Sequence record: OR352942.1
Source of the DNA: Escherichia phage AV112
Direction: 5' to 3' (one strand)
Length of the DNA: 64,000 nucleotides
Shown: positions 8,748-17,127 of the stretch, one piece after another
How positions within the stretch are numbered: position 1 is the first letter of the stretch
Layout: every line of letters starts with the position of its first letter
Notes under the pieces: model-generated
What the model was told of the DNA's origin: nothing
The model's database searches: none
What the model saw: the letters and a program-made list of their open reading frames with translations, nothing else
Program-made: the position numbers and the translations under genes

Positions 8748-10370
8748 ATGACTACTATCAAAACTAAAGCTCAGCTCGTAGACAAATGGAAAGAACTGCT
8801 GGAAGGTGAAGGCCTGCCGGAAATCGCTAATAGCAAGCAGGCTATTATCGCTAAAATCTTCGAAAACCAGGAAAAAGATTTCGAAGTATCCCCTGAATAT
8901 AAAGACGAGAAAATCGCTCAGGCATTTGGTTCTTTCTTGACCGAAGCTGAAATTGGTGGTGACCATGGTTATAATGCTCAGAACATCGCAGCAGGTCAAA
9001 CCTCTGGTGCAGTAACCCAAATTGGGCCAGCAGTTATGGGTATGGTTCGTCGTGCTATTCCTAATCTGATCGCTTTTGATATTTGTGGTGTTCAGCCTAT
9101 GAACAGCCCGACCGGTCAGGTATTTGCTCTCCGTGCAGTATATGGTAAAGACCCTATCGCTGCTGGCGCTAAAGAAGCTTTCCATCCGATGTATGCCCCG
9201 GACGCGATGTTCTCTGGTCAGGGTGCTGCTAAGAAATTCCCAGCTCTGGCTGCTGACACTACTACTGTTGTAGGTGATATCTATACTCACTTCTTCCAAG
9301 AAACTGGTACCGTATATCTGCAAGCTTCTGCTATCGTAACACTTGATTCTGGTGCGACTGATGCTGCTAAATTAGATGCCGAAGTTAAGAAACAAATGGA
9401 AGCTGGTGCGACTGATGCTGCTAAATTAGATGCCGAAGTTAAGAAACAAATGGAAGCTGGTGCACTGGTAGAAATCGCTGAAGGTATGGCTACTTCTATC
9501 GCTGAACTCCAGGAAGGTTTCAACGGTTCTACCGATAACCCATGGAATGAAATGGGCTTCCGTATCGATAAACAAGTTATTGAAGCTAAATCTCGCCAGC
9601 TGAAAGCTGCTTACTCTATCGAATTAGCACAAGACCTCCGTGCAGTACACGGTATGGATGCTGATGCTGAACTGAGCGGTATTCTGGCTACAGAAATTAT
9701 GCTAGAAATCAACCGTGAAGTTGTTGATTGGATTAACTACTCAGCACAGGTTGGTAAATCTGGTATGACCCTGACTCCGGGTTCTAAAGCCGGTGTATTT
9801 GACTTCCAGGACCCGATTGATATCCGTGGTGCTCGTTGGGCCGGTGAAAGCTTTAAATCTCTGTTGTTCCAGATTGATAAAGAAGCAGTTGAAATTGCTC
9901 GTCAAACCGGTCGTGGTGAAGGTAACTTCATTATCGCTTCCCGTAACGTAGTTAACGTACTGGCTTCAGTTGATACTGGTATTTCTTACGCTGCACAGGG
10001 TCTGGCTTCTGGTTTTAATACCGACACTACTAAGTCTGTATTTGCCGGTGTACTTGGTGGTAAATACCGCGTATACATCGACCAGTATGCTAAACAGGAT
10101 TACTTCACCGTTGGTTACAAAGGCGCTAACGAAATGGATGCAGGTATTTACTATGCTCCTTACGTTGCACTTACCCCACTGCGTGGTTCCGATCCTAAGA
10201 ACTTCCAGCCGGTAATGGGCTTTAAAACTCGTTACGGTATCGGTGTTAACCCGTTTGCTGAAAGTTCCCTGCAGGCTCCAGGTGCTCGCATCCAGTCCGG
10301 TATGCCGTCTATCCTGAACAGCCTTGGTAAGAACGCTTACTTTAGACGCGTCTACGTTAAAGGAATTTAA
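8748..10370 (+). CDS. 23: Major capsid protein gp23 (540 aa; carries internal 18-aa tandem duplication)
   Basis: T4 gp23-like throughout (T4 is 521 aa); C-terminus ...FRRVYVKGI; contains perfect 2x54-nt repeat at 9351-9458. Confidence 0.95.
   Translation: MTTIKTKAQLVDKWKELLEGEGLPEIANSKQAIIAKIFENQEKDFEVSPEYKDEKIAQAFGSFLTEAEIGGDHGYNAQNIAAGQTSGAVTQIGPAVMGMVRRAIPNLIAFDICGVQPMNSPTGQVFALRAVYGKDPIAAGAKEAFHPMYAPDAMFSGQGAAKKFPALAADTTTVVGDIYTHFFQETGTVYLQASAIVTLDSGATDAAKLDAEVKKQMEAGATDAAKLDAEVKKQMEAGALVEIAEGMATSIAELQEGFNGSTDNPWNEMGFRIDKQVIEAKSRQLKAAYSIELAQDLRAVHGMDADAELSGILATEIMLEINREVVDWINYSAQVGKSGMTLTPGSKAGVFDFQDPIDIRGARWAGESFKSLLFQIDKEAVEIARQTGRGEGNFIIASRNVVNVLASVDTGISYAAQGLASGFNTDTTKSVFAGVLGGKYRVYIDQYAKQDYFTVGYKGANEMDAGIYYAPYVALTPLRGSDPKNFQPVMGFKTRYGIGVNPFAESSLQAPGARIQSGMPSILNSLGKNAYFRRVYVKGI
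9351..9458 (+). repeat. Perfect 2 x 54-nt in-frame tandem duplication inside gene 23
   Basis: Copy 1 at 9351-9404 is identical to copy 2 at 9405-9458; encodes GATDAAKLDAEVKKQMEA twice. Confidence 0.95.
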
Positions 10371-10399
10371 TGCTTTAACGTTAAAATACATAACCTTAT

Positions 10400-10427
10400 G
10401 GGAGACTTCGGTCTCCCATTTTTGGTT
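10400..10427 (+). terminator. Rho-independent terminator after gene 23 (GGGAGAC-UUCG-GUCUCCC plus U-run)
   Basis: Perfect 7-bp stem with UUCG tetraloop followed by T-run. Confidence 0.7.
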
Positions 10428-10697
10428 TTATTTCTGTGCAATTTCAATGTAAGTTTTCAAAATATTTTGCCAATTAGGCATACCTTCTTGGACATATGCT
10501 GGAGAACCGTCTTTGTTTTTGAATGATGCAAGTTTATCAGTGGCCCAATAACCTTTAGCTCGAGCTTCAGAATCAACTTTCATCCATACTTTGTTGAAGG
10601 CATTACCATTAACTTTTGCACCATATTTTTCTACTAACTTAGCTGCTTCAGCTTCCAGAACTTTTAAAGTATCTCGTAAGAAACGTGCTTTAGTCAT
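10428..10697 (-). CDS. Hypothetical 89-aa protein, antisense to the late capsid operon (segD position in T4)
   Basis: ORF with GAGGAG RBS 7 nt upstream and early-type promoter GTTTAC-N18-TACTAT upstream; no nuclease motifs seen. Confidence 0.55.
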   Translation of the reverse strand: MTKARFLRDTLKVLEAEAAKLVEKYGAKVNGNAFNKVWMKVDSEARAKGYWATDKLASFKNKDGSPAYVQEGMPNWQNILKTYIEIAQK

Positions 10698-10724
10698 TTT
10701 GTTTACTCCTCTGTAGTTGATAAG

Positions 10725-10760
10725 TCTATAGTATCACATACCAAATACGTTGTAAACAAT
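10725..10760 (-). promoter_or_regulatory. Early-type promoter (-35 GTTTAC, 18-nt spacer, -10 TACTAT)
   Basis: Read on minus strand upstream of ORF 10428-10697. Confidence 0.6.
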
Positions 10761-10763
10761 CTT

Positions 10764-10771
10764 TATAAATA
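10764..10771 (+). promoter_or_regulatory. Late promoter TATAAATA (gene 24)
   Basis: Exact TATAAATA 28 nt upstream of start. Confidence 0.7.
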
Positions 10772-10798
10772 ATCTATATCACATAAGGAAAAAATGCA

Positions 10799-12082
10799 AT
10801 GAGTAAAATCCAAAAATTATTGCGTGAATCTACAACGTCTACTAGCAACTCAATTGGTCGCCCAAATCTCGTTGCTTTGACTCGCGCTACGACTAAATTA
10901 ATATATTCTGACATTGTAGCAACACAAAGAACTAATCAACCTGTTGCTGCTTTTTATGGTATCAAATATCTTAACCCAGATAACGAATTCACATTTAAAA
11001 CTGGTGCTACTTATGCAGGCGAAGTTGGATATGTGGACCGAGAAAAAATTACTGAGCTCACAGAAGATTCAAAAGCCACACTAAATAAAGGCGATTTTTT
11101 CAAATATAATAATATCGTCTATAAAGTGTTAGAAGATACACCGTTTGCAGATATTCAAGAAAGTGATCTAGAACTAGCTCTTCAGATTGCAATCGTTCAT
11201 TTAAAGGTACGGTTATTTTCAGATGCAGCGGTAACAAGCAAATTTGAAAGCTCTGATAGCGAAATTTCTGATGCAAGATTCCAGATTAATAAATGGCAAA
11301 CTTCGGTCAAATCTCGTAAACTTAAAACTGGTCTCACGGTTGAATTAGCGCAAGATTTGGAAGCGAATGGATTTGATGCCCCTAACTTCTTAGAAGATTT
11401 GCTTGCTACTGAAATGGCTGATGAAATTAATAAAGATATTCTTCAGTCTTTAATTACTGTATCTAAACGCTATAAAGTTACTGGAATTACTGACACCGGA
11501 TTTATTGACTTGAGCTATGCATCCGCTCCAGAAGCAGGTCGTTCATTATATCGAATGGTGTGTGAAATGGTATCACACATTCAAAAAGAGACAACTTATA
11601 CTGCAACGTTTTGTGTAGCCTCAGCTCGTGCAGCTGCTATTCTTGCTGCTTCTGGTTGGTTAAAACATAAGCCAGAAGATGACAAGTATCTTTCACAAAA
11701 TGCTTATGGATTCTTGGCAAATGGATTACCTCTTTACTGCGATACCAACAGTCCGTTAGATTATGTTATTGTGGGTGTTGTAGAAAATATCGGCGAAAAA
11801 GAAATTGTAGGGTCCATCTTTTATGCTCCATACACTGAAGGAGTAGATTTAGATGACCCTGAACATGTTGGTGCATTTAAAGTTGTAGTTGATCCAGAAA
11901 GCTTGCAACCGTCTATCGGATTATTGGTTAGATATGCTTTATCAGCAAATCCTTACACAGTAGCAAAAGATGAAAAAGAAGCGAGAATAATTGATGGCGG
12001 GGACATGGATAAAATGGCAGGACGTTCAGACTTGTCTGTTTTACTCGGTGTTAAATTGCCAAAAATCATCGTTGATGAATAA
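10799..12082 (+). CDS. 24: Capsid vertex protein gp24
   Basis: 427 aa as in T4 gp24; late promoter 28 nt upstream. Confidence 0.9.
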   Translation: MSKIQKLLRESTTSTSNSIGRPNLVALTRATTKLIYSDIVATQRTNQPVAAFYGIKYLNPDNEFTFKTGATYAGEVGYVDREKITELTEDSKATLNKGDFFKYNNIVYKVLEDTPFADIQESDLELALQIAIVHLKVRLFSDAAVTSKFESSDSEISDARFQINKWQTSVKSRKLKTGLTVELAQDLEANGFDAPNFLEDLLATEMADEINKDILQSLITVSKRYKVTGITDTGFIDLSYASAPEAGRSLYRMVCEMVSHIQKETTYTATFCVASARAAAILAASGWLKHKPEDDKYLSQNAYGFLANGLPLYCDTNSPLDYVIVGVVENIGEKEIVGSIFYAPYTEGVDLDDPEHVGAFKVVVDPESLQPSIGLLVRYALSANPYTVAKDEKEARIIDGGDMDKMAGRSDLSVLLGVKLPKIIVDE

Positions 12083-13681: not shown

Positions 13682-13756
13682 TCCCGTATTATTTGGTTTG
13701 TGCCATTATACACATCAATCTCAAGATGTGTTTTGTATGCTTTAAAAACGAAGAAA

Positions 13757-13770
13757 GGGGCCGAAGCCCC
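13757..13770 (-). terminator. Hairpin terminator downstream of hoc (GGGGC-UUCG-GCCCC)
   Basis: UUCG tetraloop hairpin then T-rich tract on minus strand. Confidence 0.55.
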
Positions 13771-13776
13771 TTACGA

Positions 13777-14628
13777 TTATTGATAGGTATAGATGATACC
13801 AGTTTCTAAAGCAGTTTTATGAATGATGTATCCATTACGTGATTCTTGAACATCAACTTCTGGATAATCTTGCAACATCTTCTGAAGAGTGTAACGATGC
13901 AGGTAGTATTTACTATCTGGATCTTCAGTTTTCCAATCTTTACCTTCTTCGGTCATTTTTTGGATTTCATCCATAACCCACCAACCGCACCAGATGTAAG
14001 CTGAAGTACGATGTGGAAGAGGATGAACATAAGGTAATTCGCCTTCTGGTTCTTGAGCAACTTTATCATTCACAGTCAGTGATACTTCATTCGAAGTAAC
14101 TTCCTTTGCATCATAATCTGTCGCTGTTACTTGAGCTACACACTTAATTGTTTTAACTCCGCTTGTGGAAGGAGTGTAATTAAATGTAGCAGAAGTTGCT
14201 TCGCCTACAGGAGAACCGTCAACGTACCACTGATACGTAGCAGATGCGCCTGATGGTTGAGAAGCTAAAGCAGCAGTAAATTCAACAGGAGTTCCAATCG
14301 CTCCAGCAGCAGGACTATCAGGAGTTACAGCTAAGGTAGTTGACTGAGTTTTATTTTTAACTGTGATAGTTGTTGTCGCTTCAGCCGTTTCCGGGCCTCC
14401 TTCAGAAAGTGTATTTGTTGCAACAACTTTAATTGTTTTTGTTCCAGCAGGTCCTTTTAACACATAATCAAAAGTTGCTTCAGATCCATCTTGTTGAACA
14501 TTATCTACAGTCCAAGCATAGGTAATAGTTCCACCTCCAGTTTCACCACTGGGTGTAGCAGTAAACTGCTGAGTCTGATCTATAACTCCAGTAGGTGTTT
14601 TAGGAGTTATATCAACTGTAAAAGTCAT
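13777..14628 (-). CDS. hoc: Hoc head outer capsid protein (283 aa; shorter than T4 Hoc)
   Basis: N-terminus MTFTVDITPKTPTGVID and C-terminal capsid-binding region match T4 Hoc; Ig-like repeats. Confidence 0.9.
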   Translation of the reverse strand: MTFTVDITPKTPTGVIDQTQQFTATPSGETGGGTITYAWTVDNVQQDGSEATFDYVLKGPAGTKTIKVVATNTLSEGGPETAEATTTITVKNKTQSTTLAVTPDSPAAGAIGTPVEFTAALASQPSGASATYQWYVDGSPVGEATSATFNYTPSTSGVKTIKCVAQVTATDYDAKEVTSNEVSLTVNDKVAQEPEGELPYVHPLPHRTSAYIWCGWWVMDEIQKMTEEGKDWKTEDPDSKYYLHRYTLQKMLQDYPEVDVQESRNGYIIHKTALETGIIYTYQ

Positions 14629-14637
14629 AAGTTATCC

Positions 14638-15306
14638 TTATTTTAATGTTACGAAAGAAGAATTGCGTGTTTCACGAATTAGAACTGATCCGTCGCGATT
14701 AATGTAATAAATTAAGCTAAATAAAGTTTGGTGAGCAGAAGCATGCACAAAACTAGTTGGGCGAGATTTCCAATCTGGGGTTTCGGCTATCCATTGATAA
14801 ATCCACCAAGGAACAGTAACATATCCTGGGCCTTTGCCTAATTTAATGAGTGTAGGACTAAAATTTTCAGGCAGAACAAATTTTACTTCTTTATTTACAT
14901 CTGCCTCAGGCTCTTTTTCAGATTCAACAACCTGAGTAATTGCTTCTTCGAATTTATCATGGTCGAATTCTTTTTCTTGTTCGACAACTTCTAATACTTC
15001 AACTTGTTCTGTTGGAGAATCAAACAACAGAATAGCTTCTTCTTTAACTTCTTCGTTGGTGAAATTAACACCGTCCACATCATCTGCGGCAGTAATTAAA
15101 TCGGTGATAGATAATCCATCAGTTTCAGGTAATGGTTCATCAGCCAGTGCTTTAAGAGCTTCTTCGATATCAATAACAATATTATCGAATGATTTTGTTT
15201 TCTTAACACTAATCCCAAATTGTTCTGCGTATTCAAACAGTTTAGCTTTGGCTTCCTTTTTATCAGAAAGAGCACGTAACTCTTCAATATAGTCTTTATC
15301 GATCAT
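14638..15306 (-). CDS. inh: Inh, inhibitor of prohead protease
   Basis: 222 aa (T4 Inh 226); position between hoc and uvsW. Confidence 0.8.
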   Translation of the reverse strand: MIDKDYIEELRALSDKKEAKAKLFEYAEQFGISVKKTKSFDNIVIDIEEALKALADEPLPETDGLSITDLITAADDVDGVNFTNEEVKEEAILLFDSPTEQVEVLEVVEQEKEFDHDKFEEAITQVVESEKEPEADVNKEVKFVLPENFSPTLIKLGKGPGYVTVPWWIYQWIAETPDWKSRPTSFVHASAHQTLFSLIYYINRDGSVLIRETRNSSFVTLK

Positions 15307-15319
15307 GGTATTTCCTCAT

Positions 15320-15327
15320 TATAAATA
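15320..15327 (+). promoter_or_regulatory. Late promoter TATAAATA (uvsW)
   Basis: Exact TATAAATA in motif CATTATAAATATAACTATA. Confidence 0.7.
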
Positions 15328-15356
15328 TAACTATATTTATTACATGGTAATTTGAC

Positions 15357-16871
15357 ATGACTGACATTAAAGTACATTTTTATGATTTTAGTCACGTGCG
15401 CATTGAATGCGACGAAAGTACGTTTTACGAACTTCGTGACTTTTTTAGTTTTGAAGCTGACGGGTATAAATTTAACCCAAAATATCGCTATGGGAACTGG
15501 GATGGTAGAATTCGACTTTTAGATTATAACCGTTTGTTACCATATGGACTTGTAGGACAAATAAAAAAGTTCTGTAATAATATGAGTTATTCTGTATGGA
15601 TTGACCCTAAAATATTTGAGACCGAAGACCTTACCAGGGAAGATTTTGACGCATGGCTTTCTAAACAAGAAATTTATTCGGGCAACTCCAAAATCGAACC
15701 ACATTGGTATCAAAAAGATGCAGTATACGAAGGATTAGTTAATCGTCGTCGAATTTTAAACCTTCCGACATCAGCAGGTAAATCACTAATCCAAGCACTT
15801 TTAGCTCGATATTATCTAGAGAACTATGAAGGTAAAATTCTCATTATCGTCCCTACAACAGCATTGACAACCCAGATGGCTAATGATTTTGTTGATTATC
15901 GCTTGTTTAGTCATTCGATGATTAAGAAAATTGGCGGTGGTGCTGATAAAGCAGACAGAGCTAAAAACGACGCTCCAATTATTGTTGGCACATGGCAAAC
16001 AGTAGTTAAGCAGCCTAAAGAATGGTTCTCTCAGTTCGGTATGATGATGAATGATGAATGCCACTTAGCAACAGGCAAAAGTATTTCTTCAATCATCTCA
16101 GGATTAAATAATTGCATGTTTAAATTCGGTTTATCTGGCTCATTAAGAGATGGAAAAGCCAATGTAATGCAGTACGTAGGTATGTTCGGCGAAATCTTCC
16201 GTCCTGTTAGCACGTCTAAATTAATGGAAGACGGACAGGTAACTGAGCTTAAGATTAATAGTATTTTCCTTCGTTATCCGGACGAATTCACCGTTAAATT
16301 AAAAGGTAAAACATACCAAGAAGAAGTTAAAATTATTACCGGACTAAAACGACGTACAAAGTGGATTGCTCAACTTTCAGTCAAATTGGCTAAGAAAGAC
16401 GAGAACGCCTTTGTAATGTTTAAACACGTTACACACGGTAAAGAAATATTTGAAGCTATTAAAGAGCTTGGATACGAAAAAGTTTATTACGTATCAGGTG
16501 AAGTTGATACTGAAACACGTAACGCGCTTAAAGTCATGGCAGAAAATGGTAAAGGCATTATTATTGTCGCATCATATGGAGTATTCTCTACTGGTATTTC
16601 AGTCAAGAATCTTCATCATGTTATTTTTGCCCATGGTGTTAAATCAAAAATTATCGTACTTCAAACCGTAGGTCGCGTGCTTCGTAAGCATGGTTCTAAA
16701 GCTGTTGCTACAGTTTGGGATCTCATCGATGACGCAGGTGTAAAACCTAAATCATTAAATACTAAAAAGAAGTATACTCATCTTAATTACTTGTTAAAAC
16801 ACGGTATTGATCGTATCCAACGTTACGCTGATGAGAAATTTAACTATGTAATGAAAACAATTAATTTATAA
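15357..16871 (+). CDS. uvsW: UvsW DNA/RNA helicase
   Basis: 504 aa; Walker A PTSAGKS and DExH box NDECH; late promoter upstream. Confidence 0.9.
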   Translation: MTDIKVHFYDFSHVRIECDESTFYELRDFFSFEADGYKFNPKYRYGNWDGRIRLLDYNRLLPYGLVGQIKKFCNNMSYSVWIDPKIFETEDLTREDFDAWLSKQEIYSGNSKIEPHWYQKDAVYEGLVNRRRILNLPTSAGKSLIQALLARYYLENYEGKILIIVPTTALTTQMANDFVDYRLFSHSMIKKIGGGADKADRAKNDAPIIVGTWQTVVKQPKEWFSQFGMMMNDECHLATGKSISSIISGLNNCMFKFGLSGSLRDGKANVMQYVGMFGEIFRPVSTSKLMEDGQVTELKINSIFLRYPDEFTVKLKGKTYQEEVKIITGLKRRTKWIAQLSVKLAKKDENAFVMFKHVTHGKEIFEAIKELGYEKVYYVSGEVDTETRNALKVMAENGKGIIIVASYGVFSTGISVKNLHHVIFAHGVKSKIIVLQTVGRVLRKHGSKAVATVWDLIDDAGVKPKSLNTKKKYTHLNYLLKHGIDRIQRYADEKFNYVMKTINL

Positions 16872-16882: not shown

Positions 16883-16896
16883 CTTAGGAGATAAAA

Positions 16897-17127
16897 ATGG
16901 TACTTGAATTTAAACAATTTTTATACGAAGCATCTATTGACGAATTCATGGGTAAAATTGCTAGTTGTCATACCTTAGAAGGGCTTGAAGAATTGGAAGC
17001 TTATTATAAGAAACGTATAAAAGAAACGAAATTAAAAGATACAGATGATATTTCTGTCAGGGATGCCTTAGCAGGGAAGCGTGCCGAACTTGAAGGCGAC
17101 GATGATGATGAGGAAGAAGACTTCTAA
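16897..17127 (+). CDS. uvsW.1: UvsW.1 small acidic protein
   Basis: 76 aa as in T4 UvsW.1; follows uvsW after hairpin and RBS. Confidence 0.8.
   Translation: MVLEFKQFLYEASIDEFMGKIASCHTLEGLEELEAYYKKRIKETKLKDTDDISVRDALAGKRAELEGDDDDEEEDF

Follow-up and report, generated by a model that had tools for sequence, protein, structure and literature searches.

Introduction

Hoc is an outer capsid decoration fiber of phage T4. Mature heads carry one copy at the center of every gp23 hexamer. Through this protein phages adhere to mucus, and on T4 heads it serves as the main scaffold for display. T4 Hoc (NP_049793.1; PDB 5vf3, 8t1x, 8t9r, 9mkb, 9mof) is a 376-aa protein encoded by 1131 nt and is composed of three Ig-like domains (D1, D2, and D3) followed by a C-terminal domain (D4). 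D3 comes after ...SNEVSLTVN187 and is followed by the linker (A/D)KVAPEPEGE, with which the C-terminal domain begins. The C-terminal domain, residues 281-376, binds the capsid (Fokine et al. 2023, Viruses, PMC10385173). Hoc is non-essential in T4, and acidic Hoc has been linked to pH-dependent virion dispersion (PMC10385173). In experimental evolution, the D246N substitution in D3 of T4 Hoc altered the binding of fucosylated glycans, weakening it (PMC9271167).

Variation in the domain number of Hoc is already well documented. A set of 650 Hoc homologues carries strings of Ig-like domains of varying length, with examples ranging from 1 to 10 domains (PMC10385173). Among the homologues with few Ig-like domains are the Hoc of PG7 (233 aa) and, in phage Muldoon, a second Hoc of 314 aa with two such domains (PMC10385173).

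The closest described system is the Hoc of ΦPNJ-9 (PQ100635), which was described and tested as a "variant Hoc lacking Domain 3" (Fu et al. 2024, J Virol, PMC11853027). Its D2 spans N92-N187 and its D4 spans D188-Q283, and the 283-aa protein was cloned, expressed, and purified (PMC11853027). The mucin MUC2 co-precipitates with D2, not with D1 or D4, and D2 displayed on M13 gives adhesion to the colon (PMC11853027). Mutagenesis found that MUC2 binding needs S183, L184, and T185 as well as fucose on MUC2, and antibody blocking together with mutagenesis established that PNJ-9 Hoc mediates mucus adhesion in vivo (PMC11853027). In the three-Ig Hoc of PNJ-6, the binding domain is D1, with residues E29 and G33 (PMC11150434).

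The hoc gene described here is located in a 64,000-nt stretch of Escherichia phage AV112 (OR352942.1), hereafter the window. It encodes a Hoc of the PNJ-9 form, so the D3-less variant itself is already known (PMC11853027). The additions made here are modest: the exact breakpoint in the DNA, evidence that the allele shared by two genera arose once, and the place of the short allele in a series of alleles with two, three, four, and five Ig-like domains.

The hoc locus

The hoc gene is located between inh and 24.3/24.2/rnlB, the conserved position of hoc. The gene order in the window, uvsW / inh - hoc - 24.3 - 24.2 - rnlB - gp24, is that of T4, and both gp23 and gp24 are encoded. The protein starts with MTFTVDITPK, holds EPEGELPYVHPLPHR, and ends with GIIYTYQ. 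It matches PHROG 1149, "Hoc-like head decoration" (E = 1.7e-103), and both PHROG 21694 and 1149 match its C-terminus. By phmmer, it also matches the PDB chains of T4 Hoc (5vf3_Z, 8t1x, 8t9r, 9mkb, 9mof), with E = 2.3e-171. Coordinates of the gene, its domains, and its flanking elements are given in Table 1.

AV113 is a near-twin of AV112 from Danish wastewater and is listed in Straboviridae, Tevenvirinae, Mosigvirus. Its record (OR352943.1, 13776-14627) is 100% identical to the window hoc, and window coordinates equal record coordinates + 1. The gene is labeled in that record only as "capsid and scaffold protein", and Hoc goes unmentioned in the publication on AV113 (PMC10844046).

Table 1. 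Features of the hoc locus, in window coordinates
Feature	Position	Strand	Evidence or remarks
hoc CDS	13777..14628	-	ATG start, 283 codons + TAA stop; encodes a D1-D2-D4 Hoc (ORF listing)
Ig-like domain 1 (aa 1-91)	14356..14628	-	83/91 identical to T4 D1; AlphaFold2 strands 4-91, pLDDT 85-96
Ig-like domain 2 (aa 92-187)	14068..14355	-	80/96 identical to T4 D2, 91/96 to PNJ-9 D2; AlphaFold2 strands 99-187, pLDDT 80-93
Linker + C-terminal capsid-binding domain 4 (aa 188-283)	13780..14067	-	89/96 identical to T4 281-376, 95/96 to PNJ-9
Codons S183-L184-T185 (MUC2-binding residues in PNJ-9)	14074..14082	-	Residues 180-190 are NEVSLTVNDKV in both the window Hoc and PNJ-9
Deletion junction, codons V186-N187-D188 (GTG AAT GAT)	14065..14073	-	279 nt encoding D3 absent (DNA comparison)
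inh, inhibitor of prohead protease; upstream neighbor of hoc	14638..15306	-	ORF listing and OR352943.1 annotation
Shine-Dalgarno-like AAGGA	14635..14639	-	6 nt before the hoc ATG; shares bases with the inh stop codon (14638-14640); read from the sequence
Intrinsic-terminator-like element	13745..13772	-	GC-rich hairpin (13772-13755; AAGGGGCTTCGGCCCCTT), then T-rich tail; 5 nt past the hoc stop (terminator scan)

Domain composition

The original prediction held that the protein, at 283 aa against 376 aa for T4 Hoc, lacks about one Ig-like domain and keeps two others along with the capsid-binding region. The ORF listing and the T4 record (852 nt against 1131 nt) bear out the lengths. In an alignment with T4 Hoc and the 472-aa Hoc of phage FL12, the window protein differs from T4 Hoc by a single contiguous gap of 93 aa and has no other indels. 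The same lone 93-residue gap is found in an alignment of 13 sequences. It covers exactly T4 residues 188-280, which is Ig-like domain 3, so the shortfall is one whole domain and the alternative of many small, scattered indels falls away. D1, D2, and D4 are colinear with those of T4 Hoc, which is encoded by the same gene at the same position.

The remaining domains are recognizable, as had been proposed. AlphaFold2 models residues 1-187 as two beta-sandwiches (strands 4-91 and 99-187, block pLDDT 80-96), forming an N-terminal string of two Ig-like domains. The best Foldseek matches of this pair in the PDB are tandem two-Ig fragments (NCAM Ig1-2, ICAM-2, CD22) and RB49 Hoc (3shs). The Pfam PKD and Ig_2 matches are all under the curated cut-offs; the PKD match at residues 99-161 scores 22.1 bits against a cut-off of 23.5. 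The input alignment for AlphaFold2 was shallow (30 sequences at >=85% identity), and the C-terminal domain is not modeled with confidence (pLDDT below 50). D4 is therefore assigned from its 93% sequence identity to the T4 domain of solved structure. The calculated pI is 4.56, compared with 4.74 for T4 Hoc, and the acidic character of the protein is kept.

Deletion junction

The breakpoint is identical in six phages, AV113, RPN187, PNJ-9, EP01, KIT06, and BYEP01, all of which encode D1-D2-D4 with the junction at N187/D188. Seventeen alleles, six short and 11 containing D3, were compared at this site. At the D2 end, all D3-containing alleles (11/11) read ACN GTT AAT AAR AAR ACA, and at the D3 end they read GT(G/A/C) ACN G(A/C)T AAA GTT GCT (11/11). 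The short alleles read GTG A(A/C)T GAT AAA (6/6), five as ACT GTG AAT GAT AAA GTT and KIT06 as ACT GTG ACT GAT AAA. Thus every short allele has GTG as its junction valine codon, whereas at the D2 end the 11 long alleles all have GTT and never GTG. A naive Fisher test of this split gives p = 8e-5, a value that ignores relatedness. The third base of the short-allele valine codon matches the codon at the D3 end, where three of the 11 long alleles (e.g., teqdroes and SHSML-52-1) have GTG.

These observations suggest one in-frame deletion of 279 bp, probably through an illegitimate recombination event, in register, involving the 3' ends of the segments that code for D2 and D3, with the crossover at the "GT" of the last valine codon. 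The KIT06 junction is the exact product of a single in-register crossover at this "GT". The other five short alleles carry AAT rather than ACT and would need a further C-to-A change or patchy mismatch repair under the one-crossover model. Because the breakpoint is shared and GTG is found in 6/6 short alleles versus GTT in 11/11 long alleles, we infer a single deletion event whose product later spread. The D3-less allele would then have been moved into Mosigvirus and Tequatrovirus backgrounds by homologous recombination. This reading of a single origin covers 17 alleles that are not phylogenetically independent.

Distribution and mosaicism of hoc alleles

A megablast search of the window hoc against 50,697 phage records matched 664 records; in 526 of these, a single place spanned 80% or more of the query. 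By length, the hoc spans in this set sort into separate classes (852, about 1131, and 1419 nt), and a span of 1707 nt is also on record. With a junction-spanning probe and megablast, the 852-nt allele was found in six GenBank phages. AV113, RPN187, and PNJ-9 are listed as Mosigvirus, and EP01, KIT06, and BYEP01 as Tequatrovirus. These phages were isolated in Denmark, Thailand, China, and Viet Nam. The 283-aa Hoc is also present in five protein clusters from public metagenome assemblies.

The two-Ig form makes up about 1% of alleles, or about 6 of the 526 full-length matches. An evenly spread sample of the ranking, counting full-length matches without the query, held approximately 32 three-Ig, 13 four-Ig, 1 five-Ig, and 0 two-Ig alleles. 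The exact junction pattern has no match in IMG/VR, a sample too small to be informative, as a general hoc pattern finds only three hoc loci there, all of them containing D3. A scan of JGI metagenomes with a degenerate 20-nt junction pattern returned 110 matches. None of the inspected JGI loci matched hoc by blastn, and they were rejected as chance matches to a pattern that is too degenerate.

Longer alleles are also found. FL12 (L003:1501-2919), JoYop (L010:1501-2919), and many other phages encode a 472-aa Hoc with a duplicated D2. The two D2 copies of FL12 are approximately 77% identical at the nucleotide level, and such alleles make up about a quarter of the full-length hoc matches (13/46 in the even sample). 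ECML-123-2 (OL631480.1 101466-103172; L017:1001-2707) carries an intact hoc ORF of 568 aa, whose product consists of five Ig-like domains (D1, three tandem copies of D2, and D3) followed by D4. This ORF has no CDS annotation in GenBank and is the longest allele seen in the Tequatrovirus series. RB69 Hoc (L018:658-2073, 471 aa) also has four Ig-like domains and is far more divergent. The domain-variable proteins described by Fokine et al., two-Ig forms among them (e.g., the second Muldoon Hoc), resemble this series in their varying domain number. Those examples are distant homologues, whereas the difference seen here is a recent allelic one among hoc genes that are more than 90% identical.

The hoc gene is strongly mosaic. 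In 96-nt windows compared with loci L004-L013, the nearest relative of AV113 hoc switches between Tequatrovirus and Mosigvirus and among two-, three-, and four-Ig alleles. D4 is 94-100% identical throughout the same comparison. The flanks of the junction are closest to other short alleles (PNJ-9, 99%; EP01, 97-99%), and D1 is closest to three- and four-Ig alleles. The flanking genes track the genus, with inh lengths of 669 nt (Mosigvirus) and 681 nt (Tequatrovirus) among the short-allele records. As a separate observation, the Ig region of AV113 hoc is T4-like and not RB69-like, despite the listing of the phage as Mosigvirus.

Alternative explanations

The window gene is very likely an intact, expressed-looking allele of hoc, encoding a non-essential outer capsid decoration fiber from which D3 was lost as one clean block through a single deletion later spread by recombination. 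The short form could in principle be an artifact in which short-read assembly collapsed the repeated Ig-coding units of a three-Ig hoc. The gene does contain repeated units, and its copy number differs across records (852, 1131, 1419, and 1707 nt), as at a locus of the collapsible type. T4 D2 and D3, however, share only about 60% nucleotide and 39% amino acid identity and are too divergent for collapse, and the junction is in frame. The allele was also recovered from six independently sequenced phages in four countries and from metagenome contigs, and a Hoc of the same length was cloned, expressed, and purified from PNJ-9 (PMC11853027). An assembly artifact is therefore extremely improbable. 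The deletion of D3 must also be weighed against its opposite, an ancestral two-Ig state from which the three-Ig form of T4 arose by insertion of D3. This polarity would agree with the one- and two-Ig Hoc homologues of other phages, such as Muldoon (314 aa) and PG7 (233 aa) (PMC10385173). The short alleles, though, are rare (about 6/526) and nest within the hoc diversity of Tequatrovirus and Mosigvirus, reaching about 92-94% identity with D3-containing alleles over the full length and 96-99% in the windows flanking the junction. In the divergent RB69 Hoc, a D3-type domain adjoins D4; it shares 47% amino acid identity with T4 D3, is the best-scoring match to T4 D3 in that protein, and lies beside a D4 that is 98% identical. 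RB49 Hoc likewise has three Ig-like domains (PDB 3shs). The third base of the junction valine codon matches the D3 end and not the D2 end, which is the footprint of a D2/D3 crossover. An ancestral two-Ig state is thus very unlikely, and because RB69 Hoc has a D3-type domain beside D4, D3 is best regarded as ancestral and not inserted.

The deletion of D3 might instead be a neutral or slightly deleterious step toward pseudogenization, leaving a remnant with no function. Such decay would suit a protein that is non-essential in T4 (PMC10385173) and an allele found in about 1% of records. The frame is intact, on the other hand, and the deletion fits the domain boundaries exactly. Across pairs of the six short alleles, dN/dS lies between 0.11 and 0.33 over the whole gene and between 0.03 and 0.24 in D4, and the whole-gene values indicate that the short allele is maintained. 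The allele also persists in two genera and on several continents, and the PNJ-9 protein mediates mucus adhesion in vivo, as found by antibody blocking and mutagenesis (PMC11853027). There is accordingly very little likelihood that the gene is a decaying remnant.

Predicted fiber and mucus binding

With D3 deleted, the C-terminal domain would dock at the center of gp23 hexamers as in T4, given its near-identity to the T4 domain. The two Ig-like domains would project as a fiber that is still acidic and is expected to be about one Ig-like domain shorter than the 180 Å of T4. It had been pointed out that domain number changes the reach of the fiber, and a changed reach can reasonably be expected from the shorter form. 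Unlike T4 Hoc, the window protein lacks D3 and with it the D246 site.

The window Hoc and PNJ-9 Hoc are both 283 aa, share the D1-D2-D4 organization, and are 92% identical with no gaps; the junction in both is SLTVN/DKVAQEPEGE, and PNJ-9 and AV113 are both listed as Mosigvirus. S183, L184, and T185, which characterize the domain-3-less variant, are present in the window Hoc and lie beside the junction. By homology with PNJ-9, the fiber is expected to mediate mucus adherence through D2, which would bind fucosylated MUC2 glycans at these three residues. E29 and G33, the D1 residues of PNJ-6, are present in the window Hoc as well. D1 is only 74/91 identical between the window Hoc and PNJ-9 Hoc, and the D1 of AV112 and AV113 resembles the T4, FL12, or JoYop type. 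Because of this difference in D1, and because D2 differs at 5/96 positions, the glycan specificity could differ from that of PNJ-9.

The number of Ig-like domains in Hoc affects fiber reach, glycan binding, and possibly the gut retention of therapeutic phages. AV113, a candidate for the biocontrol of ESBL E. coli, has a Hoc of the PNJ-9 type, which makes PNJ-9, and not T4, the model from which to predict how this phage binds mucus. A breakpoint shared across two genera, within a series of two to five Ig-like domains, is of modest evolutionary interest and opens no new question. A wider and rather doubtful proposal is that the D3-less allele arose once, moves by homologous recombination between Mosigvirus and Tequatrovirus coliphages of sewage and livestock, and is kept because, once D3 is lost, mucin is bound at D2 and the junction and no longer at D1, the site used in PNJ-6. 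The short form would then be an adaptive allele of fiber length and specificity in the series of two to five Ig-like domains, and not a neutral loss.

Neighboring sequence features

The exact T4 late-promoter motif, TATAAATA, was not found on the minus strand just upstream of inh-hoc. Only a version with one mismatch, AATAAATA, is seen on the minus strand upstream of inh. An exact TATAAATA is located on the plus strand at 15320-15327, in the inh/uvsW intergenic region upstream of uvsW. Across the whole window there are 19 such sites, compared with 7.3 expected by chance.

Homing endonuclease genes resembling segD and segE are absent from the window (about 10370-10800 and 15307-15356). In T4, such genes (segD/segE) occupy the interval from gene 23 to gene 24 and that from inh to uvsW. 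EP01, one of the short-hoc phages, has a homing endonuclease gene between inh and uvsW. The uvsW helicase of AV113 is annotated as two CDSs, one of 504 aa (window 15357-16871) and a downstream ORF of 76 aa (record 16896-17126). In the T4 RefSeq record, uvsW is a single CDS of 1764 nt that carries a note on sequence discrepancies.
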